From a virus (Duplodnaviria; Caudoviricetes): 56,118 nucleotides of DNA. The position numbers and the translations under genes are program-made. Shown piece by piece: positions 2,777-43,341 of the stretch (position 1 is the stretch's first letter; every line of letters starts with the position of its first letter). The stretch lies in IMG/VR virus record IMGVR_UViG_3300031949_000046, positions 1 to 56,118 of that record; one strand, 5' to 3'. The notes below the pieces were generated by a model, which saw only the letters and a list, made by a program, of their open reading frames with translations, was not told where the DNA came from and made no database searches.

Positions 2777-3169
2777 TTAGCTAAGATAGATTTCCCCATC
2801 GTCACCCATATACATATCGCACGATCCGGCTGCATGGGACGCATCAGACAAGCGATGACATGCTACACAGCGGTCATCGGATCGCGAATATTCATCCCAG
2901 AAGCCAGACCCGTGTCCGTTGCGATTAAGCCAGAAACAATGTCCGGCGCGTTCGTCCGTCAGCTCGGCTAGTTCAATGTCGGCCGCATTATCGGCCTGAA
3001 ACTTTTCGCAGTCGGCAACGGCCTTTTGGATAGCTTCGTTGGCAATGTCGGAGATTGAATAATTGTCGTCGAACGGTTCGCCGCCTTGCGGCGTTGATCC
3101 GTCGCTTGATGACCAAAGGGCGCAAGCTAGGTAAGCCTGGCAGAATTTTGTGAGGGTTGGTGTTTTCAT
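2777..3169 (-). CDS. conserved hypothetical phage protein
   Basis: AYLACALWSS...AGHCFWLNRNGHGSGFWD pattern; preceded by CCCGCAAC. Confidence 0.8.
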   Translation of the reverse strand: MKTPTLTKFCQAYLACALWSSSDGSTPQGGEPFDDNYSISDIANEAIQKAVADCEKFQADNAADIELAELTDERAGHCFWLNRNGHGSGFWDEYSRSDDRCVACHRLSDASHAAGSCDMYMGDDGEIYLS

Positions 3170-3239
3170 GTTGCGGGATGTTGATTTGTTATTTTCTGCC
3201 CGTCGCCGCAGTGAAGGGAGATAGGGGAAAGGGTTAGCG

Positions 3240-22446: not shown

Positions 22447-25400
22447 ATGCCAACCATCCCAACAAGAGTACAGCAGCCATCGCCTGTAGCCGCGCAGGTG
22501 GAGATGCCATCGGAGTTCCCGCCGATCCCGAAAGAGATTCTGAATCGGTTTCCATCAGCGAAGGACTGGAATGAGAAGCTGAAAGAATTTTGGACGCGAT
22601 CGACAGCGGCGATCCAATCAGCGCAGGAGACGGTGGCGAATTACTCGAATAGCCGTGTGGTTTATAGCGTGGACTCCTTCTTGATCTACGCCAAGAACGG
22701 CATCCCGCAGCCGATGTTCGCCCTGGACAGCACAGGCGTTAAGCTCGGAAACGTCCTTACAATTAGCACTCCCGGACGGAAGATTTTTATTGGTGAGGGG
22801 GTGTTTAATTCCGCCAACACGCCATTCTACGTTGATGCCCTTGGCAACTTTAGCCTTGGCGATTCGCTGGTTTGGGACGCGGCGACAAGTTCGCTGACGA
22901 TTGTTGGCTCAATTACGGCGACTACCGGCACAATCGGCGGTTTCGACATCGGAACCGATTACATCCGCGACACGGCGAATAGCATGGGCATGGCGAGCAC
23001 GGTTAGCGGCGGAGATGACGTTCGGTTCTGGGCTGGCGATACGTTTGCAAACAGGGCGACGGCTCCGTTCAGGGTGACGGAGAGCGGTATCCTGAACGCG
23101 ACGAACAACGCGGTTATCGTTGGTTCAGTCTCGGGCCGGCTTACAGCGACATTAGCTGCTGCGATTAATGCGGCGGGCAACCTGATAACCGATGTGGTTA
23201 ATCCACGTCTCGATTCAGGATTAAAGACAATTCTTTCTGATTTCACTTTTGGTGCCGCTGATTTTTCTGGGGCGGTAAAGTCGGGAACGATAGCATGGAA
23301 CACCGCGACTGGCGCGATTACTGGCGGCAGCGGCGTGCTGCTTTATCGCAGCGGGATTGTGGGTGCTAACGCTGGAGTAGCTACGTTTACGATAGACGCG
23401 ACTACGGGAGCAGCAACGTTTGCCGGCACGCTCAGTGCGCCTAACGGTAATATCGGTGGATGGACTATCGGAGCAACAACGCTCGTTGGTGGCAACGCGA
23501 CGCTTGATAGTACAGGCGTGTTAATCTTGGGGACGGTAAACGACGTAGTGGTGTTGTCTGCAACGGATGCGACGTATCGCCTGTGGGTGGGGAATGCCAC
23601 GGCAGGTAGCGCGGCCTTTGCGGTGACCAAGGCGGGGGCGTTGACGGCAACCGGAGCCACGATCAGTGGAAGCATATCGGCAAGTAGCGGGACGATTGGC
23701 GGATGGACTGTTGGGGCGTCAACGTTGGCTGGAGGCAATGCGACGTTAAGCAGCGCAGGCGTGTTGACGCTGGGGACTGCAAACGACGTGGTGATAATTT
23801 CTGCCGCAGACGCGACGTATCGTCTGTGGATCGGGAATGTCGCAACCGGGTCGGCTCCATTTACCGTGACTAAGGCGGGCGATTTAACAGCCAGCAGCGC
23901 AGCCATAGCTGGAACTATTTCAGGGCGCTCGACAGTGACGATAGCGGGCACGATTGATGCGTCGGGCAATGTCGTGACGGACCTGATAAACGCCCGGCTC
24001 AATACATCGGCCAAGACGATGCTGAGTGATTTTAGTTTTGGTGCGGCGGATTATTCGGGCGCGCTAAAGGCTGGGACTATCGCATGGAACACGATGACGG
24101 GCGCGATTACTGGAGGCAGCGGCGTACTTGTTTTCAGAGGCGGCATTATTGGGGCGGCTGCTGGAGTGGCTACGTTCACTTTGGATGCGGCTACGGGTGC
24201 GGCGACGTTTGCCGGCGCGTTGAGTGCGCCGACAGGCAGTATTGGTGGATGGACGATTGGCGCGAGCACACTGACAGGCGGTAATGCGGTGCTCGGCAGT
24301 TCGGGTGTGCTGACGCTCGGTACTGGCAACGATGTGGTTGTATTGTCTGCTGTTGATGCGACTTACCGGCTATGGATTGGTAACGCGACGGCTGCGAGTG
24401 CTGCATTTAGCGTCACGAAGGCGGGAGCATTGAGTGCAACGGGAGCAACGATCAGCGGCTCGATAACAAGCACCAGCGGTACGATTGGCGGGTTCACGTT
24501 GGGCGCTGATTACATCCGTGATTCTGCGAACTCATTTGGGCTGGCGTCAACTGTTACAGGCGGAGACGATGTTCGGTTCTGGGCTGGAGACACGTTTGCT
24601 AACAGGGCGACAGCTCCGTTTAGGCTGACGGAGGCTGGTGCAATATTCTCAACCAGCGGCACAATCGGCGGTTTCACTCTCTCGTCTACGGCACTTACAT
24701 CTACTTCTTTGATTATTGATACTGCCTTTGCTGGCTATGGCCGGATAACACAAATTGGAGCCACGAATACTTCCATTTTAGACGGAAGTGGTTTGGTAAT
24801 ATCCGATGGCAGTGGCATTGCGAGCAACTACGGAAAAACTTCTTTAGCGTTTTCTTATCCAGCAGCCGGATACGATTACACATTTGGCACTGGTGGCTTA
24901 GTAATGAAAGCGAGTACAGGTCTTTCCACAACCACCTTACAGACTACGGGTGCATTAGGAGGATCAGCCACAGGATTTAATGTCATCGCGTCATCAGGGA
25001 GCGCAGGAATCATATTCGGTAGCGATACTGTCGCTAACCTCTACCGCAGCGCGGCGAGCACGCTAAAAACGGATGGTGGCTTGGTCGTTACTGGCACTCT
25101 CTCATCTGGCGTCCTAAATCCGTCTTCGATTTCTATTGGTTCAGGGTCGCCACTGACCAGCATCACAAGCAGCAGCTTAACATTCTCTAGTACGGGTGGG
25201 GTGCAAGGTGTATACAGCATTAATTCTTTGGCTTTTCAGGCATATTCCGCAGCGCCAACGATTACTTTCGGGATAGGTTCTGCGACCAATATATTCAGGA
25301 TTTCAACCTCTTCAGGCGTTGAGACATTGGAGTTTGGCTCCGACACCAACCTCTACCGCAGCGCCGCGAACACGCTGAAGACGGATGATGCGTTTGTGGC

Positions 25401-26600: not shown

Positions 26601-27082
26601 GCATGTTATGGGTGGGCATAGGTACTGCTGTCGTTAGTGCTGGCACATCTTTGTACGGTGCCAATAAGCAATCGAAAGACAATAAGGCCGCTCAGGCTCA
26701 AAACGCCGCCCTCCAAGGCGAACAGAACCAATCTGCATGGGCGTCGTACCTGATGAGCCGAGGCGTGAACCCAGCCGGCGCGCAGACGGGCCAGCTGCCG
26801 ACCAATCCTCAAGCGATTAATGCTAAGTTGCCTCTCTGGGCTAGCGTCAAACGCAGCCCACAAGTGGCTCAAGGGTTTAGGCTTGGTGCGCGCAAGAACG
26901 TCGCTCCTCGCTTGTCGATGACTCCGCAGAACTTTCAGAACACGAATGCGGCAGATGCAGATGCAGCCGCTGTGACTCCTTCTAAAAAAGGAAGCAGCAA
27001 TATGAATGATATTTTAATCGGCAATCCGCTTGGTATCGGCGGCAAAGACCGATCATGGTATGATCCACTGGGGATATTCTAA
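26597..27082 (+). CDS. small internal virion/ejection protein
   Basis: hydrophobic Gly-rich N-terminus followed by a Q/A-rich helix. Confidence 0.65.
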   Translation: MSMLWVGIGTAVVSAGTSLYGANKQSKDNKAAQAQNAALQGEQNQSAWASYLMSRGVNPAGAQTGQLPTNPQAINAKLPLWASVKRSPQVAQGFRLGARKNVAPRLSMTPQNFQNTNAADADAAAVTPSKKGSSNMNDILIGNPLGIGGKDRSWYDPLGIF

Positions 27083-29841
27083 TGGCCACACAAGCTGAAC
27101 AACGATGGATTGCGGAAAATAGCGGCTTGGCGCAAAGCCAGTTCGGGACGACCAATCCGGCTGATGGGCTCGTGGCGCAATTCGTTCAGCAATGGTACAA
27201 TGAGAATCCGTCTGCTCAACCCGACGCGACTGACGGCCCGATTTTGGCGGAGCTGAATGGTGGTAACGCTGGGCCGAGCGAAATATCCGAGCCGGTGCTT
27301 ACAAATGGGATGACGGTGAATGACGCGCTGAGCGAATTGAAGCTCGATCCTGATTTCGCGGCACTGCCTGAATCATGGCAGGCCGATATTGCCCAGTACG
27401 CGATCGCGAATGGGCTTGAGGCGGCGGCGAATGAGATGGCGAAGAGGGCAAGAGAGTCTACATCTGAGCCAGAGGCTACCTCGACTTTAGCGAAATGGGC
27501 CTCTAAGGCGGCAGACCAAGTGGCCGTGCTTAATTCTTCTGATACTGATTTGCCTCTGGAACAGGATCTGATGAATCAGTTCTTGCCGCAATTGCTTGCA
27601 GATGCAGAAGGCGATAAAGCGCGCCGCGCATTAGCCGACCGGCTAGGGACGCAGGCGACTACCGACTTTGATGCGGCTCGCAATGCCCTTAGCCCGGAAG
27701 AGAATGCTCGCCGACTGGCGGAAGAATTAGGTCAGGCGGATAAGACATCTGGTGAGCTATCTGACTCTGCGGCTACTTCTGCTGCTGCTCAAGCTAAGGC
27801 GCTGCAAGATTCGGTCGCGGCGATGCAGCAGAATCTAACGGGAGATTTAGCTGCAAAGGCGGCGGCACTCCAGCAACAGATCGCGACTTATACAGCCAAT
27901 CTCGGGACGCTGGATGCGACGCAAAAACTCGCGCTTGAGGAGCAGATCGCTTCAAACAGGCAGAATCTTGAGAATGCGATCGCTGTTCAGCGCGAGAGCC
28001 TGACAGCTGAAATCGCGCAGCTTAATGCGGGAGTGGATACGCAGACTCAAGCCAAGCAGAACGCGCTGCAACAGCAGTTGGCGGCACTTGAGGGCGTAAA
28101 TACGGCGGAGGGGCTTGCGAGGAAGGCGGCACTAACTCAAGAGATTGCCGGACTTCGGAGTGCGGCTGGGACGCAGAATCAGGCGCGAATCGCAGCATTA
28201 TCTCAAGAGATCGACGCGCTTCGTGCGGCAGGCGTTGCTCAGAATGACGCACGGGTGACTGCTCTTACCCAAGAGATTTCAGGGTTACAGGGCGCGGCTG
28301 GAGCGCAGAATCAAGCGAGGAAGTCTGCGTTAGAGCAGGAGATCGCCGGTTTGCGTGCGGCAGGCGTAGCCCAAAACGATGCACGGGTAGCGGCGCTCGA
28401 AAAGGAGATTACTGGCTTACAGGGTGCGGCAGGTACACAGAATGCAGCCCGAAAGGCGGCACTAGAACAGGAGATAGCTGGCCTTACTGCTGCGCAAGAG
28501 CCGATGAATCAGGCGCGGCTCGATAGCGCGAATGCGATGACCACAGGAATTAATCTTGGGCTTCAGAACACGAACGACCAACTCACAGCGACTCGCGCCA
28601 AACAGGGTTATCTCGGTGGTTCAAGTTTCGATCAGGCGAATTTAGCGCGGGCTGCGATTGGTGCGCGCCAGAATGCGGCTCAGGTGATGGGTGGAGCGCG
28701 GGAGTCGAACGCAAACGACATCCGCACTATTCAAGCCCGTGGAGCAACGGAAGGTCGCTCACTGGCTGATGAGTATGCTAATAGCCTTCAGTCTATTTCT
28801 GGGCGCAAGGCAACGGAGGGTCGGTCACTTGCTGACCTGTACGCCGGCAACCAGTACAATGTCTCTGGCCGGGAAGCAACGGAAGGTCGTTCAGTGGCTG
28901 ACGAGTATGCAAACAACCTGCTTACTATTTCCGGCAGGGCATCGACTGAAGGGCGCTCTCTGGCGGATCAGAATGCAAGCAACATCTATAATGTATCTGG
29001 GCGTGCCGCCACCGAAGGGCGAAACGTGGCCGATGAATACGCCAACAACCTTCTCTCAATTTCAGGTCGCGAATCTACGGAAGGTCGTTCGCTGGCTGAT
29101 ATTCTGGCAGGCAAGCAGGCGGGCGTCGGTATTTTCGGTGCAAATGAAGGGCGCGGGATTGCCGATACCGCCGCTGATTCTCGGCTTGCGATAAACAACC
29201 GAGGCGCGACGGGCCAAAGGACTTTGACTGATACGCTTGCCCAAGGACAGCAGCAGCTTGGGGACACCGGGGCGGCTGGCTTGGCGACGATCAAGAACAA
29301 CACTGGTACTGGGCTGTATAATATCGGCAATGCCGGCGCTGCGCAATCCTATCAAGATCAAGTAGGCGGTTCTACGAAGCTGAAAGAATTGCTTGATGCT
29401 TTGGCGCAAGGCACGGGCAGTATTGCGAATACTCAGGCAACGCAGCAACAGACGGCTCGGGACACTGGCACGACAGCCAAGCAGGGCTATTTTGATAACG
29501 CCTATACTCGCGGCCAAGGTGCAATCCTTTCACGTCCAGGATTATCCAGCCAGCTCACAAACACGCTTACTGGGTTGGATAATTACGGATCGACTGGGCT
29601 TAACAGAGCGTTATCCACGTTGAATTGGTGGTCTGGTAATGGGCAGGCTGCGCCGACTACGGGATACATTCCGACTACGGCGGCAAATACGGGGAACGAT
29701 ATTGCGGGGCTCGGTGCTGGGTTGCTTGGCGCGGGCTTAAATATAGGCAATTCCGCGAACTGGTGGCAGCCAAAAAAATCTACGGCAACTTCTTTGTTCG
29801 GGGGAGGGCAGACTGATTTATTTAAAGCCGGATTAACCTAG
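27082..29841 (+). CDS. ejection (DNA-transfer) protein with 20-aa repeats
   Basis: A/Q/G-rich; ALxQEIAGL and TEGRSLADEYAN repeats; GLGAGLLGAG C-terminus. Confidence 0.65.
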   Translation: MATQAEQRWIAENSGLAQSQFGTTNPADGLVAQFVQQWYNENPSAQPDATDGPILAELNGGNAGPSEISEPVLTNGMTVNDALSELKLDPDFAALPESWQADIAQYAIANGLEAAANEMAKRARESTSEPEATSTLAKWASKAADQVAVLNSSDTDLPLEQDLMNQFLPQLLADAEGDKARRALADRLGTQATTDFDAARNALSPEENARRLAEELGQADKTSGELSDSAATSAAAQAKALQDSVAAMQQNLTGDLAAKAAALQQQIATYTANLGTLDATQKLALEEQIASNRQNLENAIAVQRESLTAEIAQLNAGVDTQTQAKQNALQQQLAALEGVNTAEGLARKAALTQEIAGLRSAAGTQNQARIAALSQEIDALRAAGVAQNDARVTALTQEISGLQGAAGAQNQARKSALEQEIAGLRAAGVAQNDARVAALEKEITGLQGAAGTQNAARKAALEQEIAGLTAAQEPMNQARLDSANAMTTGINLGLQNTNDQLTATRAKQGYLGGSSFDQANLARAAIGARQNAAQVMGGARESNANDIRTIQARGATEGRSLADEYANSLQSISGRKATEGRSLADLYAGNQYNVSGREATEGRSVADEYANNLLTISGRASTEGRSLADQNASNIYNVSGRAATEGRNVADEYANNLLSISGRESTEGRSLADILAGKQAGVGIFGANEGRGIADTAADSRLAINNRGATGQRTLTDTLAQGQQQLGDTGAAGLATIKNNTGTGLYNIGNAGAAQSYQDQVGGSTKLKELLDALAQGTGSIANTQATQQQTARDTGTTAKQGYFDNAYTRGQGAILSRPGLSSQLTNTLTGLDNYGSTGLNRALSTLNWWSGNGQAAPTTGYIPTTAANTGNDIAGLGAGLLGAGLNIGNSANWWQPKKSTATSLFGGGQTDLFKAGLT

Positions 29842-32083: not shown

Positions 32084-35000
32084 GTGAACTCATTCGTCGC
32101 ATACTATAAGAAATATTTGCAGGATACTGGTCAGAAAGATGACCTGACGGATTATCAGATAACAAAAGAGATGGGGGATTGGGCGAATAAGAACGACCCA
32201 AAATTATTTGAGGAACACCCGGACTTTGCAGAAGAGTGGGCTTCGATTCGCGAGGCCAATGCGCCGCCGCTCAGTTCTGAGGTCGGACGCGGATTCAAGC
32301 GCGCAGGCATCGGGCTTGGCTCAACGGCACTCGGCGCGGGCGCACTGGTTACGGGCTCTGATTACCTGAAGCGGAAGGCGGCGGCGCTGGATCTGATGGC
32401 GTCCGATCCCGATTTGGCTCCGACTATCGGCACGATGGATGACGTGCGCTCAGGGCGCGATGCGTTGCGCTATGGGCTATCCAAGTTTGGTGAAGCAGCT
32501 CCTTCGATTGCTGAGAGCGTTGCCGTGGCAGGCGTTGGTGCATTGGCCGGTTCGGCTGCTGCGCCTGGTGCCGGCACGATTGCTGGCGGTGTGGCTGGAG
32601 TGTTAGAGAAAAGCGCGATCAAGGCCGCGTTGCGCGAGATGCTGAAGAAGGGCGCGAAAGAAGAGGCGGAATCAATTGCGGAAGGAATGGTGAAGAAAAA
32701 GCTTTTGCGCGAGGCCAGCGAAGAAGGAATCGAAGAAGCGGTGAAGGCAGGGGTTAAGCCGGTGATCGACGCCGTGGCATCGAATGCAAAGCGCATCTCA
32801 ACGATTCGCGGTGGTATTGCGGCGAACACGGCTAACTCCTACGGACTGAGTGCGGGCGAAATCTACAACGAGACGGATGATCGCGGGCTGGCGCTTGGAC
32901 TGGGTGCGGTCGCAGCGGTGCCTGATACGATTTTGCCGGCGTACTTGCTGACCCGCATGTTTCCCGGTGTGGCGATGAGTGAAGCGCGCAAGCAGGGCAA
33001 GAATCTTGTGGCGAGGCTGGCAACCGAAGGGCTAAAGACATCCGGCATTGAGGCCAGTACGGAAGCATTTCAAGAGGGCGTGAACATCGTGGCCAAGAAG
33101 CTGAAGGACGGCACCGACCCGACTGACTTTAACGATCAGGACTGGGTGCGCGTGCGCGAGGCCGCGATTACAGGCGCGGCTGGCGGCGCGCTGACGGCTC
33201 CTGCGGCTGCGATTGGTGGACGTGCGCCGGAAGTGGATGTCGCGGCTCCGGCAGTTGTCGTTCCGCCTGCAAAGCCGGCTGTGGCCTCGCCTGTAGTTGA
33301 GCCGACCGCGCCAGAGGCTATCTCTCCCGTTCGCCGCGTGATGGCGATGTCGCCCGAGCAGCAGGCTGTGCGCGTGACCGAACTCGAATCGCGTGAGATG
33401 GTGGGCGATGAGCCGCAAGAGTATCAGCTTTTGAAGCAGGTGGCCCCGACTGCCACGCCAACGGAAGAAGTAATTCAACCAACCGCCCCCAATGAACAAA
33501 TCGTCCAGCCAGCTCCTGTCGAGCCGAGTATTCCGATCAATGAAGCGGTGGTCGGACAGGCATCCGCTGCGCCAAGAGCCTCCGCGCCTACTCAGCAAGC
33601 AGAGATTGCTGGCGCTGTACTTCCCGGAGTGGCAGGCGAAGGCGCTAATGTCGGACAGCTTCCCGTTTCTGCGGTAACTGCTACATCAATCGCCCCAGTA
33701 GAATTTGTCGGCGTACAGGAAGGTGCTGATGGTAAGCCGTTGTTCACTATTTATCGCACAACGGAAGATATTCCCGGCCATCCTAAAGGCAGTTCTGTAA
33801 CGGACAAGACTTTGGCGCAAGCCGGATACGATGTGGCCGCGCTTCCGACTGAGCCGCCTGTTGTTGCACCACCAACACCATTCGTTCCATCTTCTCCGGT
33901 CCCAGTTGTCCCGGCTTTAATGCCGACATCTCCACCTCCGCAGCAGTTGGCCAGCGTAGCCGGTAGCGCGCCCAACATTGGTTCCGGCGTTGAAACTGCG
34001 CCGACTGCTGCGCCTGTGGGATTAAGTCCACGGGAAGAGCTATCGAAGCTCATTAACGAGACACAGACCGCTGCTGGATGGGACCCCCAATGGCCGTTTA
34101 TTCCACAAGACTTCGGGAATAAGACTTTCGTTGAGGGCGTGATCGCGGATCAAACGATAGCGCCAGAACTTAAGAAGCGCATGTTCGATGCGGCAAGAAA
34201 ACTGGGCGTGGGGACGATTCCCGAAAACGCATCAACCGCACCACTTTCTCAATCTCAACCAATCCCCGCCAATGTTTCGCCATCTAATCAAGAATTTGCT
34301 CTGCCTCAAGGAACAGCCGCCACTGTCTCCGCTGATGCCTCCATTCGTGGTGGATCATCGGCCTCGCCAGCCATGGCCGATAGAGGCGGAAGCTCGGTGG
34401 CAGGCGTACTTGGCGTGGTCGAGAGAGGAGGAGGTCAGGTGGCAAGTGCACTTGGCCAGAAAATTACTTCTGTTTTCGCACTCCCCCGCGCCCTCGCCGG
34501 AGCCAAACCCCGATTCTCCGCCTTCCAACTCAACTTCGAATCCGACTTAGATAAGGCGACGTACATCTTGGCGCAGCCGAATCCGAGCGCGTCTGATGGC
34601 GCGTATCTCAAGGCCGTAACCAGTCAAACAGGAATGACCGAGCAGCAGGCGCGTCAACGCGGGCGCGAAGTAAAGGCGCGCATCAAAGAGATCGTGAATA
34701 GCGGCGGTGACGGCGGGGATGTCGTGAACGTACCGGCGACTGACAGCGAATTCGACGCGCCAGCCATGCGGTTTTCGACTGAGCCGGCTAATCCCGCCGT
34801 ACAGGCCAGCCGCACGAAAGAATTTCAGGCCGTAATGGGCCGGCTGGTATCGAACGGCGCGAACGTGCAGACTATGAGCCAAGAATTATTGGCTCAACAG
34901 ACCGGAGATATGCTGCGCCAACAGATCGCAGCTCTTGAACAGAGACTGGCGCAGGCGACGACGGCTCCGCAGCGCGACGAAATCACACGCCAACTTGAAT

Positions 35001-38000
35001 TTCGCAAGCAACGGCTGTCTGAAATCGGGCAGATGCAAGGCGTGACGTACTCGCCCTATCACATCGCCGTGGCGATGAAGGACGTGATGAGCGCGAATGT
35101 GCATGAGCTAGTCACTTTGATACATGAAGCGGCAGAATCGTTGACTATGCGGCTAACTCCTGCGCAACAGGGAGCCGTGATGCGTGCGGTTGAGGCGACG
35201 TTTGCCGACATGCATAGCCGGATGCAAGCGGCGGCTCAAAACACCGGAGCCACGGTCGCTCATGTGCCAAATCCGAGCGAACTTTTGGCGGAAAGTATGG
35301 CGCAGAAGTTCGCCGCAGAGGGCGTGCCGGAATCGAAGTCGCTCGCTGACGCAATCGTGCGTTGGATAAAGGAAATTTACTACCGCGTGGCGATGGCTGC
35401 GCAACGGGCATTTGGTGCGGAGCCAAATCCTGAGCTGGCGATTGCGTGGTTCGAGAATCAGCTACGGCGCGAGCTTGGCGGCGACTACAGTTACAGCCTT
35501 GAGAGTTTGCTCGATCGACTGATGCCCCAGAGCAATGAGACGATTGCCAAGAAGCTCACGGGCTTGACCGGAACGCCAGACGGCCTGGTTGATTTTTATG
35601 ATCCAGTGACGGAATCGCTGCGCCAGCCGATGGCTGAACCGATCAGTAGTGATGCTTTGGCGTGGAACATGAAATTCTCGACCACTCAGCCGAATGCCGG
35701 CGAGAGTTTGGGTATTCCTGCTGAAGAAGCGTATGCCCGCACGGCGGCAGCGGCGTATAATGAGCAGGTAAGGTGGATGGAAGAGATGCGGCTGAAGGTC
35801 GCTCCGAAGATGAACCCGGCTGAGTTCTACGCGATCACTGGTTACGGTCAGGAGAGCCCACAGGAACTGTTGGCTGCGCTTGAAACGCAATCCCCGGGCG
35901 TATCATCCGCCAAGATTGGCGGTGAGCGCATGACGGACATAATGAACAAACAGGCATCTTATCAGGTGCTTCAGTTTGTGCGCGGGATGCAGGCAAAGCA
36001 TCTCGATTCCATCGCCAAAACGCAGGAGACGGTTGCTGATGCGGAAGAGAAATACACCAAGCACGCGGGCGAGTTGAACCGGCTGGAGCCGGACGTGAGA
36101 AACGCTGAAATTCACGAAGGTGTGCTCAAGGACAAAGCGAAGGAGATGCTGACCGACCTGCTGAAGTCGTACAAAGACGGAATCAGGACGGCGAAGGGGC
36201 TCGGCGGCATGATGCGCACCGAGGAAGGGCTTGGCGAGTACGACCCGATGCCCAAATTCTACGAACAGGTGTTTAATAGCCTGCTGAATGGCGACATTGA
36301 ACTATTTAAGTACGTCGATGCGATTGCGGCTCTTGATTTGCCGCTCAGCACGATGAGCCCCGATGCGGTTCTGAAGGCCGTTCGCGACAATGCCGACCAA
36401 TCGCCCGCGCTGAAGGAACTGAGTCGCAATAAACCGCTCGCATTGACGCTGGCGACACTGGCAAGCGACAGTTCACGGCAGTTCGACCAAGTTCAACTGC
36501 GCAAGGCGGAAGGCTCCGCGTTTTTGGAGATTCGCAAAGATTTGGAGGCGATTCGCAACGCGACCGAGGCCCAACTGCGCGAGATGATCAAGACCGTCGA
36601 TGACCGGGCTTTAGCCAAGGGGCTTCGCCAGCGAATCAAGCATGAATACCTGCTGGAACGCCGTGCTCTACGCCTCGCCTCCGACCGGATGGCCGAAGCT
36701 GAGAAGCGGATCAAGCTTTTGACTGAGGCGAAGCCTGAAGTGGCGGCACGAGTTGCTGAAGCTGAACAGGCGATTGGCGGTATCTTCACGGACTGGCAAC
36801 CGATCAACGGCGCGGAGTTCATTGTCATGCGAAAGCGGGACGACGGCTCTTACGCGAAGGCTGTGAGGAAGCTTGTTGAAAATTCGGACGGTTCGTTCGC
36901 TGACTCTGAAGGCATTTACAATGATTTGAAGAAAAACACTCAATGGCTGAAGGCGAACAAAGAGCGCGAAGGCCAGAAGGAGTATAACCAGATCAAGCAC
37001 CAGACTGATAAGCTGAAAATACTGGATATTGGTCGCAGCTATCAGGCGGCAAACTTTGGCAAGATCATGGGCTTTATTGATTCTTTTGTTCGCCCATTGC
37101 AGGCCATAGCCAAGCAGGCGGGTGGTTCAGGATCGCGCATAGTGCAGGCGTTTAATCAGTATGTATTCATCAACCGAAGCGGTGAGAAGGCGTTGATTCC
37201 GGGTTCCCACCGCTGGCAGCACGCGATGAATCGGGCGATGAAATCTGCCGGGATAAAGGACATCGGCCAGTTTAAGGCGCAGGTGTATAATCCGGTGATG
37301 TATTACTTGGGCGTGAACCCAGGGCTCGACCAGTATCAAGCCATCCGCGAGGCAACCAAGGAAGCGCGCAACCGACTGGCGAAGGAACCGGCTGCTGATT
37401 TCAACGAGAAGTTTGAAAAATTCCTGATCGAGACCAAGGCCATCAACGAAGAGATGCTTCGGACTGCCGAGCAGTACGGCGTGATGGTTTCTGATCCCAA
37501 GATTCAGGGCGAGCTTCGCCGTGCGCTGGCCCAAGGATGGATCACGGGTATGCGCGGGATGAATGACGGCGTGGTGGTGACGCTCATAAACGAAATGGGC
37601 AAAGCTGGGTGGAAGATGGAATATGACGGCGAAGGCAAGAAGCGCCGGGCCACACACTCAACGACGTTCCGTGGCATGATTCCGCCCGCGCTCAAAGCGG
37701 ATGAGAGTAACGCCGATGCGAGAGCCGAGTATTTTGCGCAGTTAGAAAACACGGAGGTTGTTCGTGGAGCGTTAAAGCCATTTTTCACTCCGCGTATAGT
37801 AAATGACTGGCTGCTTCCGTTCATCAACAAAGCGGGCAAAGCGGTGTTCACGCACGACGGTAATAACATCCCGCAAATTGCGCTTCAAAACGCATGGGCG
37901 AAGTCAGGCGGCGACGTACTGAACTGGATCGACGAACTGGGCATGAGTATCGACATGAAGCCAGCACAGGGAGTCAGCAATTCCGCCACATTCCGCGCTG

Positions 38001-40411
38001 AGATGTTGGAGCAAATCGAGAGCCTGTACGCATGGGAGGCCCGCATGGCGTTTGAGTCACAGAAGACGCCCGACCTGTTCAATAACAGCGGGGCCAAGTT
38101 GCACGTCATGATGGATGCGCGCATGAACGATACGCTCCCGCCTGAGCACGTCAATTTTGCTAGTTATGATCCGACCTCGGTTCAACAACTGCTTGGGCAG
38201 ATAGCGTTTCACGGGGCGTTTGGCCGCAACGGGCAGGCATTGACGGCCAATCTGGGCGAACTGGCGAACACGCTGAAACTCAAGAAAGCGAATTTCGACT
38301 CGCTCCAGTCGTCCACGGTTGATGGTCGCGAGCGTGAGGCGAAGGAGCGCGGCTGGAATTACAACGACCTAAAGAACGGTGTGAAGCACTGGCAGGACGT
38401 GGAGGAATTGCGCGGCGAGATTGAGTCGGCGTTCGGCATCAACAACACCTATGGGCCGCTGCATGATGCGCGGGCGGGACTAGAGCTGCTTGGATTCGTG
38501 GTTGGTCAAGCGGTCGATCAGCCAAAAACGGCAGGGCTTAATTTCCTATCTCTTGGCGCGAGAGCATTTGCCATGCACTCGCTTGGTTTCAAAGTCATAA
38601 AAGCGACGGCTTTGAGCTACGGAGAACTGGCTAAGAATTCATTCGGCGGAATGCTTCATGATTTCGGCATAGATATTATCCGCATGAGCGACTATGCAAA
38701 GGAGGCCGGCGAAGTCGAGGGCAAGGCGTTCCGTCGCCTGCCGTGGGGCGTGGTGATGTCCGACATGGGCAAGGAGGGCTCGTTTCAGGATGGACTGGCC
38801 CAGCGATTCTTGGTGCATCCGTTGCGCGTTTTGAAGGCTATCCAGAAAAAGGGCGTTGGTCCTGGCCTGTTGTCAATTCCCGGCGCTGGCATAATGCAAC
38901 GATTCGCTACCGAAGGCGCTATCGCCAATCTCCGTGGGCAAACGTACCTGTTGGAAGGTATCATCAATGCTGGCATCAAGCATTTCGCCGCGCACCCCGA
39001 AGACCTGAACAATCCCGCATTCCGCTTCGACGCTGACAAGCTGAAAATGCGGATGGATCGCGGCGTCTATGACTGGTTTCGTAATAAAACGGTCGAGTAC
39101 AACATGGGGCCGATTGAGAATATCGTGCGCGAGTCCATGGAGCGAATGAAGACGGGTGACCGGGTTATTACTAAGGAGATGGTTGAGCAACTGGCGCAAA
39201 TGAACGGGCAGGAACTGGATGGCGCTTCGTCGATCAACACCGCTCCAGCTGGATTGGCGAATAATCCCGCGCTCAAAGTAGCTATGCCGCTCTTGCGCTG
39301 GCCACTCTGGATGATGCACGCGGCCCACGAAGGGCTGGCGGATGCGAACGGTAAGGCTGATTTCAAGTCCATGATGAAGGGCATCGGGCGGCTGGCGGCG
39401 TGGAATCTGCCGCTTGGCCTAGCGTTCACATTTCTTATCGACGAATACGATGAGAAGATTTTGGGAAAGAAAAACGCGATGCCAGAAGCGCAGGGCGTTG
39501 GCGCAATTCCGTTCATCGGCCTGCCACTGGCTTTGGCGACAACCAATCGCGGCATTCCGCAGGAGGCTATTGCAATCGGTCAACGCATGATCCGGTCTGG
39601 CAACGTTTATGGCCTTGGCGCTGACATGCTCGGCGCACTCGTGACCCCATTCGATCCCGGTTCAGGCCAGCGTGCATTCTCGCTCGACCAGCGCGTGATG
39701 GTGATGTCACAGTTTTTGAATCTGACTCAGGCGATCAGTAACATGGTCAGCCAAGGCGGCACAGCTACATGGGGCAGCGTCTATCGCCCGATGGTGGCAA
39801 GCATTGGCGGAAACGGGATGCTTAACAGTCTCGGTATCGTGAACAACATGGTTGGTCTCGACAATCAAGAGGCCCGGCTGACGATGCGAATCAACGCAGC
39901 CCGCTGGATTAACACGGCGGCGAAAGAAGTAGGCATCGAGACAAAGAAGGCATCAGGCTTCAGTAACCCGTCGCCGATGAGCGTGTGGACGCGGGAGATG
40001 CAGTTAGCTGCGATGGCTAATGACCGCATGGGGTTTGGTCAGGCTTACCAGAAGGCACTGGCGGCAGCGCGTGAGATTGTGTCTAAGAACGAGAGCATTC
40101 CGGTGGAGCGTCGCGAGCAGGAGGCGATGCAGCGCGTGTTGGCATCGTGGAAGGCGCGCAATCCGTTCTCAGGACTAGCTTCAACCCCAACGCCGGATCA
40201 GATTGCGCAACTACTGGGCGCAATGGATGAGGACGGGCGCAAGGATGTGAGTGATGCGATGCGACAATTTCAGTCGTACACGGCCTTGATTGCGCCATCG
40301 AAGACCGACCAGCTTTATGCGCGCCGACTCAACACGCTCAGGCAGCAGGCGAATCCAATGTTGCAGGTGGAACGGATGAGACGGCAGGCGGCTGGGATGT
40401 TTGCGCAGTAG
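32084..40411 (+). CDS. giant internal virion / DNA-transfer protein (2775 aa)
   Basis: Gly/Ala hydrophobic segments, EASTEAFQE motif, Pro-rich linker, TLIHEAAE...ELLAE zincin-like remnant. Confidence 0.75.
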   Translation: MNSFVAYYKKYLQDTGQKDDLTDYQITKEMGDWANKNDPKLFEEHPDFAEEWASIREANAPPLSSEVGRGFKRAGIGLGSTALGAGALVTGSDYLKRKAAALDLMASDPDLAPTIGTMDDVRSGRDALRYGLSKFGEAAPSIAESVAVAGVGALAGSAAAPGAGTIAGGVAGVLEKSAIKAALREMLKKGAKEEAESIAEGMVKKKLLREASEEGIEEAVKAGVKPVIDAVASNAKRISTIRGGIAANTANSYGLSAGEIYNETDDRGLALGLGAVAAVPDTILPAYLLTRMFPGVAMSEARKQGKNLVARLATEGLKTSGIEASTEAFQEGVNIVAKKLKDGTDPTDFNDQDWVRVREAAITGAAGGALTAPAAAIGGRAPEVDVAAPAVVVPPAKPAVASPVVEPTAPEAISPVRRVMAMSPEQQAVRVTELESREMVGDEPQEYQLLKQVAPTATPTEEVIQPTAPNEQIVQPAPVEPSIPINEAVVGQASAAPRASAPTQQAEIAGAVLPGVAGEGANVGQLPVSAVTATSIAPVEFVGVQEGADGKPLFTIYRTTEDIPGHPKGSSVTDKTLAQAGYDVAALPTEPPVVAPPTPFVPSSPVPVVPALMPTSPPPQQLASVAGSAPNIGSGVETAPTAAPVGLSPREELSKLINETQTAAGWDPQWPFIPQDFGNKTFVEGVIADQTIAPELKKRMFDAARKLGVGTIPENASTAPLSQSQPIPANVSPSNQEFALPQGTAATVSADASIRGGSSASPAMADRGGSSVAGVLGVVERGGGQVASALGQKITSVFALPRALAGAKPRFSAFQLNFESDLDKATYILAQPNPSASDGAYLKAVTSQTGMTEQQARQRGREVKARIKEIVNSGGDGGDVVNVPATDSEFDAPAMRFSTEPANPAVQASRTKEFQAVMGRLVSNGANVQTMSQELLAQQTGDMLRQQIAALEQRLAQATTAPQRDEITRQLEFRKQRLSEIGQMQGVTYSPYHIAVAMKDVMSANVHELVTLIHEAAESLTMRLTPAQQGAVMRAVEATFADMHSRMQAAAQNTGATVAHVPNPSELLAESMAQKFAAEGVPESKSLADAIVRWIKEIYYRVAMAAQRAFGAEPNPELAIAWFENQLRRELGGDYSYSLESLLDRLMPQSNETIAKKLTGLTGTPDGLVDFYDPVTESLRQPMAEPISSDALAWNMKFSTTQPNAGESLGIPAEEAYARTAAAAYNEQVRWMEEMRLKVAPKMNPAEFYAITGYGQESPQELLAALETQSPGVSSAKIGGERMTDIMNKQASYQVLQFVRGMQAKHLDSIAKTQETVADAEEKYTKHAGELNRLEPDVRNAEIHEGVLKDKAKEMLTDLLKSYKDGIRTAKGLGGMMRTEEGLGEYDPMPKFYEQVFNSLLNGDIELFKYVDAIAALDLPLSTMSPDAVLKAVRDNADQSPALKELSRNKPLALTLATLASDSSRQFDQVQLRKAEGSAFLEIRKDLEAIRNATEAQLREMIKTVDDRALAKGLRQRIKHEYLLERRALRLASDRMAEAEKRIKLLTEAKPEVAARVAEAEQAIGGIFTDWQPINGAEFIVMRKRDDGSYAKAVRKLVENSDGSFADSEGIYNDLKKNTQWLKANKEREGQKEYNQIKHQTDKLKILDIGRSYQAANFGKIMGFIDSFVRPLQAIAKQAGGSGSRIVQAFNQYVFINRSGEKALIPGSHRWQHAMNRAMKSAGIKDIGQFKAQVYNPVMYYLGVNPGLDQYQAIREATKEARNRLAKEPAADFNEKFEKFLIETKAINEEMLRTAEQYGVMVSDPKIQGELRRALAQGWITGMRGMNDGVVVTLINEMGKAGWKMEYDGEGKKRRATHSTTFRGMIPPALKADESNADARAEYFAQLENTEVVRGALKPFFTPRIVNDWLLPFINKAGKAVFTHDGNNIPQIALQNAWAKSGGDVLNWIDELGMSIDMKPAQGVSNSATFRAEMLEQIESLYAWEARMAFESQKTPDLFNNSGAKLHVMMDARMNDTLPPEHVNFASYDPTSVQQLLGQIAFHGAFGRNGQALTANLGELANTLKLKKANFDSLQSSTVDGREREAKERGWNYNDLKNGVKHWQDVEELRGEIESAFGINNTYGPLHDARAGLELLGFVVGQAVDQPKTAGLNFLSLGARAFAMHSLGFKVIKATALSYGELAKNSFGGMLHDFGIDIIRMSDYAKEAGEVEGKAFRRLPWGVVMSDMGKEGSFQDGLAQRFLVHPLRVLKAIQKKGVGPGLLSIPGAGIMQRFATEGAIANLRGQTYLLEGIINAGIKHFAAHPEDLNNPAFRFDADKLKMRMDRGVYDWFRNKTVEYNMGPIENIVRESMERMKTGDRVITKEMVEQLAQMNGQELDGASSINTAPAGLANNPALKVAMPLLRWPLWMMHAAHEGLADANGKADFKSMMKGIGRLAAWNLPLGLAFTFLIDEYDEKILGKKNAMPEAQGVGAIPFIGLPLALATTNRGIPQEAIAIGQRMIRSGNVYGLGADMLGALVTPFDPGSGQRAFSLDQRVMVMSQFLNLTQAISNMVSQGGTATWGSVYRPMVASIGGNGMLNSLGIVNNMVGLDNQEARLTMRINAARWINTAAKEVGIETKKASGFSNPSPMSVWTREMQLAAMANDRMGFGQAYQKALAAAREIVSKNESIPVERREQEAMQRVLASWKARNPFSGLASTPTPDQIAQLLGAMDEDGRKDVSDAMRQFQSYTALIAPSKTDQLYARRLNTLRQQANPMLQVERMRRQAAGMFAQ

Positions 40412-40604
40412 GCGGGATCAATCGTTCCGGCCAAAACTCGCCATTTATATTGCGAACACCGAAAGTGGACAAGCAGCAGTCGGTGCCGCACAGCCATATT
40501 GTTGTGGGCGTGTCGTTATCAATTTCTGCGATTTCGGGCTCAACGCCGGGCTCGCGATACCAGTAAAAGCCGTTTTCGGTTGGGATTGTTTTTGTCCAGT
40601 TCAT
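40338..40604 (-). CDS. cassette gene A (MNWTKT..PTExGFYW family)
   Basis: paralog of 40947..41165; C-terminus runs antisense into the giant gene. Confidence 0.75.
   Translation of the reverse strand: MNWTKTIPTENGFYWYREPGVEPEIAEIDNDTPTTIWLCGTDCCLSTFGVRNINGEFWPERLIPPTAQTSQPPAVSSVPPATLDSPAA
40392..40414 (+). repeat. 23-bp direct repeat copy 1 (CTGGGATGTTTGCGCAGTAGGCG)
   Basis: exact match to copies 2 and 3; contains the giant gene's stop codon. Confidence 0.95.
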
Positions 40605-40900
40605 GTTAGTGGTGCTGTTGGGTTATTCTGGGATGTTTGCGCAGTAGGCGTGGTCGCTCCGTAAACAACACTCAGTTCGTGTTCATCTAGGGATATGGAA
40701 CTAGGGCACCTGCGACACATATCCAGTAGGTCTCTAAGAAACACAGCATTCATTTTCAGGCATTGCCGTGTATGCAAAGCTACTTCATTATTTTGCAACT
40801 CTTTAACAGGAGGGAAAAGGTTTATGGCTTTCTCGATTTCAGCTAGCGAAATCTCAGCATAGGGCATGATCGTTTTTGAATCAAAATTGGCAGTTGCCAT
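40601..40900 (-). CDS. cassette gene B, hypothetical
   Basis: 99 aa, AT-rich, ends PTAQTSQNNPTAPLT. Confidence 0.7.
   Translation of the reverse strand: MATANFDSKTIMPYAEISLAEIEKAINLFPPVKELQNNEVALHTRQCLKMNAVFLRDLLDMCRRCPSSISLDEHELSVVYGATTPTAQTSQNNPTAPLT
40628..40650 (+). repeat. 23-bp direct repeat copy 2
   Basis: exact copy, preceded by GGTTATT. Confidence 0.95.
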
Positions 40901-40946
40901 TGTTTTATTGGGTTAAGTTTTGTTTGTTATTGGGGCGTGACTTCAA

Positions 40947-41165
40947 TTATTGTGTGCATGGTGTTTGGTTATTCTGGGATGTTTGCGCAGTAGGCGGAAC
41001 CAATTTCTCCGGCCAAAACTCGCCGTTCACGTTAAAGGCAGAAGATCCTAGCGCTATTTTCCATATCCTGTCTTCGTAGATTTCGATAATTACAGGCAGG
41101 CCCAGTTCGTTTTCACGAAACCAGTAAAAGCCACCTTCAGTTGGTTTTGTTTTTGTCCAGTTCAT
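40947..41165 (-). CDS. cassette gene C (MNWTKT family)
   Basis: 72 aa, ends PPTAQTSQNNQTPCTQ; ATG overlaps the integrase stop. Confidence 0.75.
   Translation of the reverse strand: MNWTKTKPTEGGFYWFRENELGLPVIIEIYEDRIWKIALGSSAFNVNGEFWPEKLVPPTAQTSQNNQTPCTQ
40974..40996 (+). repeat. 23-bp direct repeat copy 3
   Basis: exact copy, preceded by GGTTATT. Confidence 0.95.
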
Positions 41166-42433
41166 GTTAGTGGTGGTGTTGGGTTGCTCTGGAGCGATGG
41201 GGGCACCCCCATGATATACGGTGATGGCGTGCTCATTTGACGCCCGTAGCCCATTGTTATACTCGTATCGCTATGGCCCATCAACCGGGATATTTCCTCA
41301 ATCGACTTGCCTGATGCTGTCAGGCGCAGGCGAAACGTGTGTCGCCAGCCGTAGAAGTTCTTCGTGTTATCGACCCCGCAACGCTCAAGGACTTTGTGGT
41401 AGGGTACGAAATACTTGAACGGATGCCCAGGGTATTTTTTCTGCGCATACGGGAAGCAATAGATACTACCGGTATAGAGCTTGGCTTTCATTTCAGCAAA
41501 AATCTCTTTAAGTTCTCCGCTCCCAAGCAAGGGATCGCTCAACGGAATAATTAGTTCGCGGCCCGTTTTTTGCGGATACAGCTTTACGTAATCCTCGCCA
41601 ATAGATGACCACTCAAAGCGTGTAATATCCACCGGCCTGAGTCCGAGCCAGTAGCTAATCGCGGTGGCGTAGCGCCAGTATGGAGGCACTAGTGGGCTCG
41701 CCATGACAAGTCGGTACTCGGCTTCAGTGAACGGTCTTTCCGGCGTGACCTCGCGTTGCCGGTTCGTGAGCCGTGATTTGTTTATTCTGAGATCGGCGGC
41801 GATGTTGATCTTGCACGCGCCAATAGCCACCGCGTAGGTGAAAAACTGCCGGATGGCGATACGCCAAAGCTTGAGGGTATTTTCCTTCAGATGCCCCGTG
41901 TTCAGAAATTCATGGAGCGTGAGACGCTTGACCAGCGAAAGCCGCGTGTTCTCCAGCTTGCAGCGGGTCATGAATTGATTGACCGCCGACATATACAGTT
42001 TGACGGTTTGCTTTGAGCAGCGGGCTTTGAGTTCATCGCGCCACTGTGGTAGCGCGTGCTTGAATAGCATGTTCTCGCCCGACATGACGACAGGATATTT
42101 ATCGGTGCCGTCGCGAGCCATGTCCGAGAGTGACTTCACTCCGATGTCATCGACGACTTGAAGGGCTTCCTTGATTTCGTCAGTCTCGGTAGTCAGCCAC
42201 TCTTTCTTTTTCGTCTCTGAATTGGTGACGCCCACCCGCCAGTTGCCTGATTTATCCCGCTTGAGATTATGGCCGCGAACTTTCGGCTCCTTGACGTAGA
42301 GGTGCGGATTCTCAGTTTTATCCTGCTCGCGTAGGTGGTATTGAAAGCCCTGTGCCTTGGCGCGCATGGCTAGGAACTCGGGGGATTTGGTGGCGCGTTT
42401 GCGTTTTTCTTTAACCGGGGTTTCGGAGTCCAT
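41162..42433 (-). CDS. int: tyrosine recombinase/integrase
   Basis: GLRPVDI, PQKTG, YGWRHTF, LMGHSD, TMGY catalytic motifs; likely ATG at 42433. Confidence 0.92.
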   Translation of the reverse strand: MDSETPVKEKRKRATKSPEFLAMRAKAQGFQYHLREQDKTENPHLYVKEPKVRGHNLKRDKSGNWRVGVTNSETKKKEWLTTETDEIKEALQVVDDIGVKSLSDMARDGTDKYPVVMSGENMLFKHALPQWRDELKARCSKQTVKLYMSAVNQFMTRCKLENTRLSLVKRLTLHEFLNTGHLKENTLKLWRIAIRQFFTYAVAIGACKINIAADLRINKSRLTNRQREVTPERPFTEAEYRLVMASPLVPPYWRYATAISYWLGLRPVDITRFEWSSIGEDYVKLYPQKTGRELIIPLSDPLLGSGELKEIFAEMKAKLYTGSIYCFPYAQKKYPGHPFKYFVPYHKVLERCGVDNTKNFYGWRHTFRLRLTASGKSIEEISRLMGHSDTSITMGYGRQMSTPSPYIMGVPPSLQSNPTPPLT

Positions 42434-42560
42434 ATTCGGTGATGATGCGGCTGGCGGTGTAATTAAGGGAGCGGTTATCGGCCTTGGCGAAACGGCGCAC
42501 AACTGGCGTGGCCTTCGCGTCGAGCAGAACAGACTGCCGCCCTTTGTGGCGTTTCTTCAT
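42411..42560 (-). CDS. Arc-like ribbon-helix-helix protein (49 aa), absent from track
   Basis: MKKRHKGRQSVLLDAKATPVVRRFAKADNRSLNYTASRIITEYGLRNPG; ATGA-coupled to the upstream gene. Confidence 0.7.
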   Translation of the reverse strand: MKKRHKGRQSVLLDAKATPVVRRFAKADNRSLNYTASRIITEYGLRNPG

Positions 42561-42805
42561 GATACAATCCTTTTTATCATTTCCTCATATACCTTGCCGC
42601 CTATTTTAGTTTCCCTCGTTATTTCAATGAAAGGCGCATCATCATAGCCGGGGTCATCTGGGTTGAGAAAAACACGCACATTTTTATTCTTAGGCGGGCA
42701 GAACTGAATAGCGTAATAGACATTCAAAAACCATAAAATCGTTCGCCGAAGCGGAGAAATAGAAAAAGGTTTGAAGGCGTATCGCCTTTGTGTTGGTGTA
42801 TTCAT
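42557..42805 (-). CDS. hypothetical protein
   Basis: 82 aa; first gene of the int operon. Confidence 0.55.
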   Translation of the reverse strand: MNTPTQRRYAFKPFSISPLRRTILWFLNVYYAIQFCPPKNKNVRVFLNPDDPGYDDAPFIEITRETKIGGKVYEEMIKRIVS

Positions 42806-42894
42806 GTATCCCTAAGTATCGCACATTTTACACAAATCAAGTTTATTGTTGCTATATTACCGGCGCAAAGTCGAAATCGAACTATAGACATAAT

Positions 42895-43341
42895 ATGGGA
42901 CGCCTACCATTACGCACCGCATGGGAATACATAGCCGCCTATCCACCACCGTATTGCCGACTTCTCGCCAAGGAGAAGGGCGGCGGGCGAAAAGAGATGG
43001 CCATCACCGATGCGACACTAGCCATTCGGTCAGGCATCCCGATCAATCGGATTCGAGCGATTTCAATCCAGGCCTCGTGGGACGGGATTCCGATGGATGA
43101 AATGCACCGATTCTTTGCGGCCTGTAACTTCGATCCAACCAACTCGGGACACCGCGACCGGGTAAACAAATACGAAAAAGAATGCACGAAGAGGAAAACA
43201 GTTCCTTTCCACTATCTGAGGAGATCACCGAAGTGGGAGACAGAATTTCTCCCGCTTTTTCTGATGGTATTTCAAATTTTGAAATTGAAGAACGGGTTAT
43301 CGCCAAAGGGCGCAACTTCGATTACACACGCGAGGAGCTGA
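42895..43341 (+). CDS. putative HTH regulator
   Basis: ITDATLAIRSGIPINRIRAIS HTH-like; divergent from the int operon; ATG at 42895. Confidence 0.55.
   Translation: MGRLPLRTAWEYIAAYPPPYCRLLAKEKGGGRKEMAITDATLAIRSGIPINRIRAISIQASWDGIPMDEMHRFFAACNFDPTNSGHRDRVNKYEKECTKRKTVPFHYLRRSPKWETEFLPLFLMVFQILKLKNGLSPKGATSITHARS

Follow-up and report, generated by a model that had tools for sequence, protein, structure and literature searches.

The window analysed here is the whole of IMG/VR virus record IMGVR_UViG_3300031949_000046, a linear sequence of 56,118 nucleotides (nt), estimated to be 77% complete, from an uncultured temperate soil phage. The subject is the slot between its giant virion gene and its integrase gene, where three small open reading frames (ORFs), A, B and C, are bounded by copies of a short repeat. 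An earlier note on this DNA had proposed an integron-like array, in which the phage integrase acquires or excises mini-genes at hybrid attachment (att)-like sites. The description of the locus in that note proved accurate in each detail checked. The locus is not an integron, and a dependence on the integrase lacks support. We lean, on balance, towards an accessory-gene ('moron') hot spot at the overlapping ends of two convergent genes, which would have been shaped by insertion, by tandem duplication (A and C) and by recombination at short repeats (B).

The locus and its repeats

The left end of the window carries minus-strand early genes, including a primase/helicase, a RusA-like resolvase and HNH proteins. 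The virion module is long, lies on the plus strand and terminates in an ORF of 2775 amino acids (aa). It is followed by a minus-strand block (40338–42805) with the integrase, ORF C, ORF B and ORF A in this order, and the terminase and head genes come next. No nucleotide relative of the window was found in a GenBank set of 50,697 phage records. In the following list, R stands for the sequence after CTGG, L for that before it, and X and Y for the outermost sequences on the giant-gene side and the integrase side, respectively.

32084–40411, plus strand: giant virion-module gene, 2775 aa, whose last codons are X (..RRQAA) followed by CTGG and R (G-MFAQ-stop)
40338–40604, minus strand: ORF A, 88 aa, a paralogue of C that starts in an ATGA overlap with the stop of B; its 3' end lies antisense over the giant gene
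40392–40414, plus strand: first copy of CTGG+R, encoding the giant-gene tail and stop; antisense it is the ..PTAQTSQ.. tail of ORF A
40601–40900, minus strand: ORF B, 99 aa, with no relation to A or C; its frame through R is the one used by A and C (..TPTAQTSQNNPTAPLT-stop)
40612–40650, plus strand: junction J2, L (about 16 nt) + CTGG + R (19 nt), between units A and B
40947–41165, minus strand: ORF C, 72 aa, a paralogue of A that starts in an ATGA overlap with the stop of the integrase
40958–40996, plus strand: junction J3, L + CTGG + R, between units B and C
41162–42433, minus strand: tyrosine integrase, 423 aa from the ATG at 42433, lambda-Int-like (PF00589, 2.1e-10)
41173–41192, plus strand: L' + CTGG inside the integrase 3' end (codons ..SLQ SNPT..), where homology to relatives starts or stops

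The 23-nt string CTGG+R, CTGGGATGTTTGCGCAGTAGGCG, was present in three exact copies on the plus strand, at 40392, 40628 and 40974 (spacing 236 and 346 nt), as claimed; none was obtained in 100 shuffles. A search of the window that allowed up to three mismatches gave no further copy. The fourth CTGG, at 41189, lies within the integrase 3' end and closes a unit of 215 nt. The formal architecture was X-R / L-R / L-R / L'-Y, with one minus-strand gene body per interval, as the earlier note had stated. J2 and J3 were identical over 30 nt and their L parts agreed at 13/16 positions, and L' differed from L at 2 of 11 positions. X did not resemble L apart from CTGG. The two L-side stretches, 40552–40631 and 41113–41192, showed 86% homology ending at the CTGG of 41189, consistent with the claim that it stops at the core. 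On the minus strand, R was read by all three small ORFs in one frame (PTAQTSQ), and these ORFs terminated in L or X. When X-CTGG was joined to Y and read by eye, the giant ORF ended promptly (..AAGAMGAPP-stop), as predicted for a cassette-free gene. Both of the palindromes reported at the integrase-side site were found (41185–41194 and 41198–41213). The second was not conserved in the relative L018 (see below), and the small dyad GCTC-TG-GAGC occurred at the Y site only, not at the other three junctions.

ORFs A and C are diverged paralogues arranged head to tail, with 41/72 identical residues (57%, E 3e-22), while R remained unchanged (23/23). About 85 nt at their 5' ends and about 55 nt at their 3' ends were conserved, and the middle was diverged and contained an indel. 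A hand count on the alignment gave approximately 0.3 synonymous change per site since the duplication. ORF B had only R (23/23) and about 13/16 nt of L in common with A and C. It was preceded by a 46-nt leader or spacer of its own and was not coupled to the gene upstream, as distinct from the ATGA stop/start overlaps at integrase/C and B/A. The G+C content of the bodies of B and C was 0.41 and 0.43, against 0.53 for the window.

Homologues of the integrase, B and C were searched for among 5.8 billion proteins (A was outside that search). B and C found only themselves. For ORF A, no family was matched in Pfam, PHROGs or NCBIfam, and for C there was no match in isolate phages. The nearest Atlas clusters of C were small viral hypothetical proteins (score 0.92), and its predicted structure weakly resembled a DUF551-like fold (TM 0.59), which may serve as a lead only. 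The Atlas model of B had a pLDDT of 0.70, and its Atlas neighbours were small viral hypothetical proteins only.

The closest solved structure to the integrase was lambda Int (PDB 1z1b, E 1e-5). The protein contained the R..H-x-x-R..H..Y catalytic domain, and R266, H365, H387 and Y396 were invariant across nine integrase sequences. The candidate for the catalytic Tyr is Y396, within GYGR, and the SLQ encoded at the fourth CTGG follows 18 residues later. Eight homologues of the integrase were found in the protein search. In isolate phages the best identity by tblastn and blastn was at most about 29%, and the 4-kb locus had no match there.

Alleles of relatives and the origin of R and L

Scans of IMG/VR for relatives gave only L018/L019 (one contig), a distant integrase (L020) and L021; further relatives came from the protein searches. 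The junctions of P0002, P0004 and P0011 were deduced from protein tails alone. P0002 and P0011, from two contigs, are integrases 87% identical to that of the window, with tails reading ..PASLQ-(N/S)NPT-AQTSQ-PPAAAS.. This corresponds to the order Y, CCAG, first L codons, R, CCAG, X, with no gene between R and L. About 27 nt separate the two CTGGs in this bodiless allele. The tail of P0004 (61%), ..PASLQ-PPAAATAP.., corresponds to Y-CCAG-X, an empty site, and thereby provides the empty X-CTGG-Y allele that had been predicted (SLQ|PPAAATAP..). The search of relatives for alleles with fewer cassettes, which the earlier note had suggested, gave empty (P0004) and bodiless R.L (P0002, P0011) alleles; A, B and C were seen nowhere else.

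In L018 (P0003, integrase 64% identical) the integrase tail was ..SSLQ-SIAANISPLLQ, and the slot held two unrelated genes. One (470–700) is a plus-strand ORF resembling Lar, a restriction-alleviation protein; it matched phrog_599 (6e-5) and, below the cutoff, PF14354. An ATGA overlap couples this ORF to the giant gene, and its final 14 residues repeat the giant-gene tail (..RRQSANGMFTAP). The giant gene proper ended in a different tail, ..RRQSAAQMILQ. The other slot gene is a minus-strand ORF of 128 aa. The insert made up of the R-like sequence and this ORF was flanked by a different direct repeat of 15 nt, TATTGGC(+6 nt)GGCAATCG, of which 11 nt were exact, and the far (giant-side) joint was AACGG, not CTGG. 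In L021, whose giant protein was 49% identical, about 3.2 kb of unrelated minus-strand genes separated the giant gene from an integrase of 375 aa, and no repeats were found in the slot. A gene for a homing-type endonuclease (HNH_3 + NUMOD4) is present at 7238–7924 of L021, antisense over the giant 3' end by about 115 nt.

The breaks in homology were sharp. The alignment between the integrases of P0003 and P0004 (80% identical) ended exactly at SLQ, which is CTGG, and that between the window and P0002/P0011 likewise broke after SLQ. In blastn the alignment between the window and L018 began or stopped at 41189. The integrase tails beyond SLQ differed in four relatives, and all read phage sequence. 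Because the alignments stop so precisely at SLQ/41189, the slot is a genuine hot spot with a sharp boundary on the integrase side, filled or emptied independently in two sub-clades. An invariant array, which according to the earlier note would have spoken against its proposal, was not what we saw: L018 holds other genes, and the two close pairs of integrases both lose homology at CTGG.

The relatives also pointed to where R and L came from. The giant protein matched no Pfam family. A search with its C-terminal 450 aa against 1.84 billion proteins gave 436 representative homologues, with partners of 2000–6300 aa, and none was found in the 50,697 phage records. The three closest homologues (P0013–P0015) ended in ..RRRAAGMMMASP, ..RRRAAAGMMTGP and ..RRQAAGMMFAP, with the shared motif ..RR(Q/R)AAGM(M/F).., and a giant-protein fragment from the closest relative (P0166) ended in ..RRQAAGMFAP. 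The tails of more distant giant proteins varied. Because P0013–P0015 end in the same motif, R is the C-terminal tail and stop of the giant gene itself, not a foreign half-site. In several distant integrases (40–44% identical), ..ATAQTSSQ-PPASA.. or a similar sequence followed soon after GYGR, and more distant ones ended in ..Q-PPA.A.. 'R antisense + CCAG + X antisense' is an old integrase tail.

A script was used to ask for antisense compatibility of the two tails. One DNA can encode 14 residues of the P0015 giant tail together with, antisense to it, the P0008 integrase tail TAQTSSQPPASASA, at the frame offset of the window. The tails of P0166 and P0002 were likewise compatible over 14 residues. 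P0015 and P0008 both come from a 21,565-nt Logan contig, and P0166 and P0002 from a contig of 6,567 nt, same-contig pairing being taken from contigs equal in size and source. At 9 residues the script passed 9 of 1359 pairs, some of them spurious, and we relied on the 14-residue tests of same-contig pairs only. As one DNA can encode both tails, the tail-to-tail overlap of the giant gene and the integrase is ancestral. The first L codons correspond to integrase-tail codons in the bodiless relatives, judging from the protein tails. With R a native tail and L made of integrase-tail codons, the 'hybrid sites' can be duplicated gene ends.

Readings of the locus

Several features expected of an integron or of a lambda-type attachment site were looked for. 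The units, each with one ORF and bounded by a repeated site, are as in an integron. The integrase scored 22.3 bits against the integron-integrase model TIGR02249 (cutoff 265) and 18.5 against NF011946 (cutoff 435), and is not IntI. Folds of the four junctions as single-stranded DNA, on both strands, were no more structured than shuffles (z −0.43 to +1.50). No dyad shared by the four junctions was seen by inspection and no attC-like hairpin, the junction being only about 40 nt. The array lies downstream of the integrase and co-directional with it, whereas integrons have attI upstream and divergent from intI, with the cassettes expressed from Pc. These results contradict the designation 'integron-like'. 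Promoter-like and terminator-like sites were at chance level (3 vs 3.2 and 4 vs 4.0 expected). In a scan for arm-type sites (39900–43150), the sole 9- or 10-mers present at least three times were the R copies.

R was also searched for as a host attB, as had been suggested. The 19-mer gave no locus in IMG/VR, 4 loci in JGI metagenome contigs and 10 in species-representative genomes, none with matching flanks or context, and no plausible site emerged. The four metagenome loci and L008 and L014 (Thalassolituus records) were one unrelated sequence by their identical flanks. The remaining loci were single chance 19-mers, the best being a 22-nt Pectobacterium match in the middle of a 752-aa ORF. No transfer RNA (tRNA) gene was found in the window, L018 or L021. 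A search for a prophage form, made with the giant C-terminus in 5 named handles and in 401 + 401 genomes sampled from two phyla, gave none. Two sequencing runs were found, and contigs only resulted from them. In an independent assembly of run X1, one contig matched 39000–40756 of the window with no differences and ran from X-CTGG-R through A and J2 to take in 125 nt of unit B. No circle, joint or deletion allele was seen in the X1 contigs, which left 40757–41620 uncovered. The integrase, B and C are also on record from a second contig, of 57,815 nt.

We interpreted the locus, with modest confidence, as the moron hot spot outlined above, and would class it as a variant of the modular shuffling that repeats mediate, here in the moron slot of a phage. 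Its history would have begun with the insertion of a small gene between R and L. Tandem duplication of the unit lying between two CTGG microhomologies would have followed, giving rise to A, C and the L-CTGG-R joint. The joint of the A/C duplication is the 4-nt microhomology CTGG, and A and C are homologous units lying head to tail. Not all units are homologous: the body of B is unrelated to A and C, so that a further event beyond duplication is needed. A unit with similar ends, B, may have entered the joint of about 38 nt by a single (Campbell-type) or double crossover, later than the duplication, and copied the joint a second time. A recent entry of B with duplication of the joint would explain the identity of J2 and J3 together with the 2 differences in 11 positions between L' and L. 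The recombination may have been general or illegitimate, by a host or phage recombinase or by replication slippage, and would require no dedicated site-specific system. The joint may have been kept since it provides the stop of the upstream ORF and, for A and C, the ATGA-coupled start. In T4-type phages, recombination at short repeats shuffles small ORFs and releases mini-circles, according to PMC2839356, and phage recombinases are described as working on short or diverged homology in PMC3945230. Other small ORFs in the window are flanked by repeats without CTGG, R or L, namely the 82-aa ORF described below and two early genes sharing ACATCCCGCAACA.

Several points weigh against this interpretation. 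B has no relation to A and C, yet its R matches theirs at every base and its L at about 13/16 nt. Its shared ends exceed the 31 nt of the bodiless relatives, and by a rough estimate the extra bases have a p of about 1e-3 to 1e-4. Conserved cassette ends are a prediction of a site-specific system, and crossovers within 21–38 nt are rare. The breaking of four alleles at one CTGG inside the integrase, in two independent close pairs, is a striking coincidence. Copy 1 of R is identical to copies 2 and 3 (23/23), with flanking A/C identity of about 86–89%. No recombinase gene was recognised among 20 early-region ORFs scanned in this record, which is 77% complete.

The cassette-like ends of B, the CTGG coincidence and the lack of a recognised recombinase are why we keep capture by the integrase as an alternative, though an unlikely one. 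In it, X-CTGG-Y would be the attI- or attP-like site and L-CTGG-R would be borne by the cassettes, whether these were taken up one by one or as a multi-unit circle in one step. The exact X-R / L-R / L-R / L'-Y architecture fits it, as do the existence of the predicted empty allele and of a bodiless unit, the breaks at CTGG in the 87% and 80% integrase pairs and against L018, and the same ends on the unrelated B. The integrase ORF of Mx8 spans its own attP (PMC6070905), which is a precedent for the location. But X-Y and L-R have only 4 nt in common, with no dyad, arm sequences or fold, and the insert of L018, which has a 64% identical integrase and the same Y-CTGG, is flanked by another repeat and lacks the far CTGG. 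The cassettes were found nowhere else, there were no joints or circles in the X1 contigs, and insertion at the core would presumably part a lambda-type attP from one of its arms. A system driven by the integrase was thus not supported. Stated specifically, that a lambda-type integrase with a 4-bp crossover site in its own 3' end captures and releases single-gene circles of about 200–350 bp bearing about 40 nt of L-CTGG-R, it seemed to us rather doubtful. The sequence cannot tell which enzyme acts, because any crossover within L-CTGG-R gives the same product.

Three further readings were considered. If the repeat were mainly an expression module kept by selection (a stop with a coupled restart or leader), akin to the regulatory cassettes of T4-type phages, duplication alone, with the body in the middle of the array overwritten, could have produced the array. 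This appeared improbable. ATGA overlaps occur at integrase/C, B/A and the 82-aa/49-aa ORFs, the three ORFs share a frame through R and finish in L or X, genes lack an upstream Shine-Dalgarno motif, and a similar leader, ACATCCC..CAACA..ATG, precedes two early genes. However, the promoter-like and terminator-like sites were at the expected number, B has its 46-nt spacer and is uncoupled, and selection on the peptide or on coupling would not require identity at 23/23 nucleotides. That the locus holds relics of attachment sites, with CTGG in an Mx8-like attP, R and L as attB half-sites, and A, B and C captured by aberrant excision from a host or resident-prophage array, was judged slightly more improbable. 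X-CTGG-R and L'-CTGG-Y are shaped like attR and attL, the G+C content of the B and C bodies is low for the phage, variable DNA adjoins int as in the lambda b region, and Mx8 is again a precedent. On the other hand, R is the phage's own giant-gene tail by the motif above, its 19-mer is absent from IMG/VR with the 4 metagenome and 10 genome loci being unrelated genes, and neither tRNA nor prophage was found in the sets named. The bodiless allele, with about 27 nt between its CTGGs, leaves no room for host DNA. An assembly artefact, in which strain variants were stitched together through short repeats, would agree with the lack of X1 contigs over 40757–41620. It was considered highly improbable: the repeats (30–38 nt) are below the usual read length, one X1 contig covers X-R, A, J2 and part of B with no differences, and int, B and C recur in the 57,815-nt contig.

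Known systems and neighbouring features

Integrons have been reported in phage genomes (PMC9892861). The locus is like an integron in its single-ORF, apparently promoterless units beside a tyrosine recombinase, in the X-R / L-R / L-Y order and in having a relative with an empty site. It is unlike one in its lambda-like integrase, in the lack of a hairpin and in an array that lies downstream, inside the integrase 3' end. Its junction halves are the tails of the flanking genes themselves, and its cassettes were not seen elsewhere. The PeSL 'mobile regulatory cassettes' of T4-type phages (PMC2839356) also have features in common with the locus: short repeats bound small, non-essential ORFs in a hyperplastic region, mini-circles can loop out, and indels or replacements between relatives are bounded by repeats, as was found here. 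Compared with those, the repeat of this locus is without promoter or stem-loop terminator and codes on both strands. It probably represents the duplicated ends of two convergent genes, in a temperate phage and in a slot adjoining the integrase. According to PMC6070905 and PMC4383910, attP of Mx8 lies within the integrase ORF intP, and integration alters the C-terminus of Int. Here too, the integrase tail beyond the catalytic Tyr seems exchangeable, and relatives differ exactly there. Unlike in those accounts, the alternative tails are phage DNA, not host DNA, and no prophage, attB or tRNA target was found in our searches.

Non-essential, variable genes next to attP-int are known from the lambda b region or moron slot. 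As there, genes of lower G+C content, variable and in the direction of int, lie between the virion module and int (3.2 kb of them in L021). The difference is that repeated junctions and duplicated gene tails bound each unit in the present locus.

If the hot-spot interpretation is correct, the locus is a clean natural example of small orphan genes being added at an overlap of convergent genes. Each insertion would duplicate the overlapped ends and so create short repeats by which units are stacked or lost, an 'ORFan nursery' beside the integrase. If the integrase does the work instead, this would be a second, independent case of cassette capture by a tyrosine recombinase, on a virus, at a site small enough for direct testing and for reuse as a tool. 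Such a phage platform would be integron-like in function and unrelated in evolution, and with each capture or release the integrase and the giant virion protein would both acquire a rewritten C-terminal tail. On either reading, the phage belongs to a large uncultured clade, with 436 representative clusters for the giant C-terminal domain.

Two small ORFs lie upstream of the integrase.

42411–42560, minus strand: basic ORF of 49 aa, immediately upstream of int and overlapping its start
42557–42805, minus strand: ORF of 82 aa with no counterpart in L018; an imperfect direct repeat (CCTTTGTG..TTCATG) lies on either side, and an ATGA overlap couples it to the 49-aa ORF

The 49-aa ORF and its counterpart in L018 (2344–2496, 50 aa) were far better conserved than the integrase itself. 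It matched no family and is possibly a small DNA-binding regulator or an excision factor. The 82-aa ORF is inserted between the 49-aa ORF and a conserved intergenic block, and is a second repeat-flanked insertion, one without CTGG, R or L. At a third indel between the window and L018 (45916–46294), no flanking repeat was seen.

Among about 40 gene starts in the window, no Shine-Dalgarno motif was seen upstream, and the upstream regions were A-rich (..aataacATG, ..ctaaaATG). This hints at a host without reliance on Shine-Dalgarno pairing. The early genes at 2700 and 3169 encode unrelated proteins (no BLASTP alignment) and have the 13-nt leader ACATCCCGCAACA just before the ATG (2690–2714 and 3157–3181). 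R antisense contains the ACATCCC part of this leader as well. Several small minus-strand ORFs start with M-(N/K)-T-(P/K)-T or MNWTKT.

Other repeats in the window lie within genes. About 15 head-to-tail copies of a 15-nt unit were found at 1581–1893, inside a minus-strand ORF of 187 aa (1389–1952). Its product is a pentapeptide-repeat early protein matching several PHROGs of unknown function. Repeats with a period of 66 nt (22 residues) were present at 28123–29132 within a 919-aa ORF (27082–29841), and a 1082-aa ORF contained internal repeats at 22893–23082 / 24448–24675 and at 25036–25397. These two ORFs are likely to encode fibrous virion proteins.

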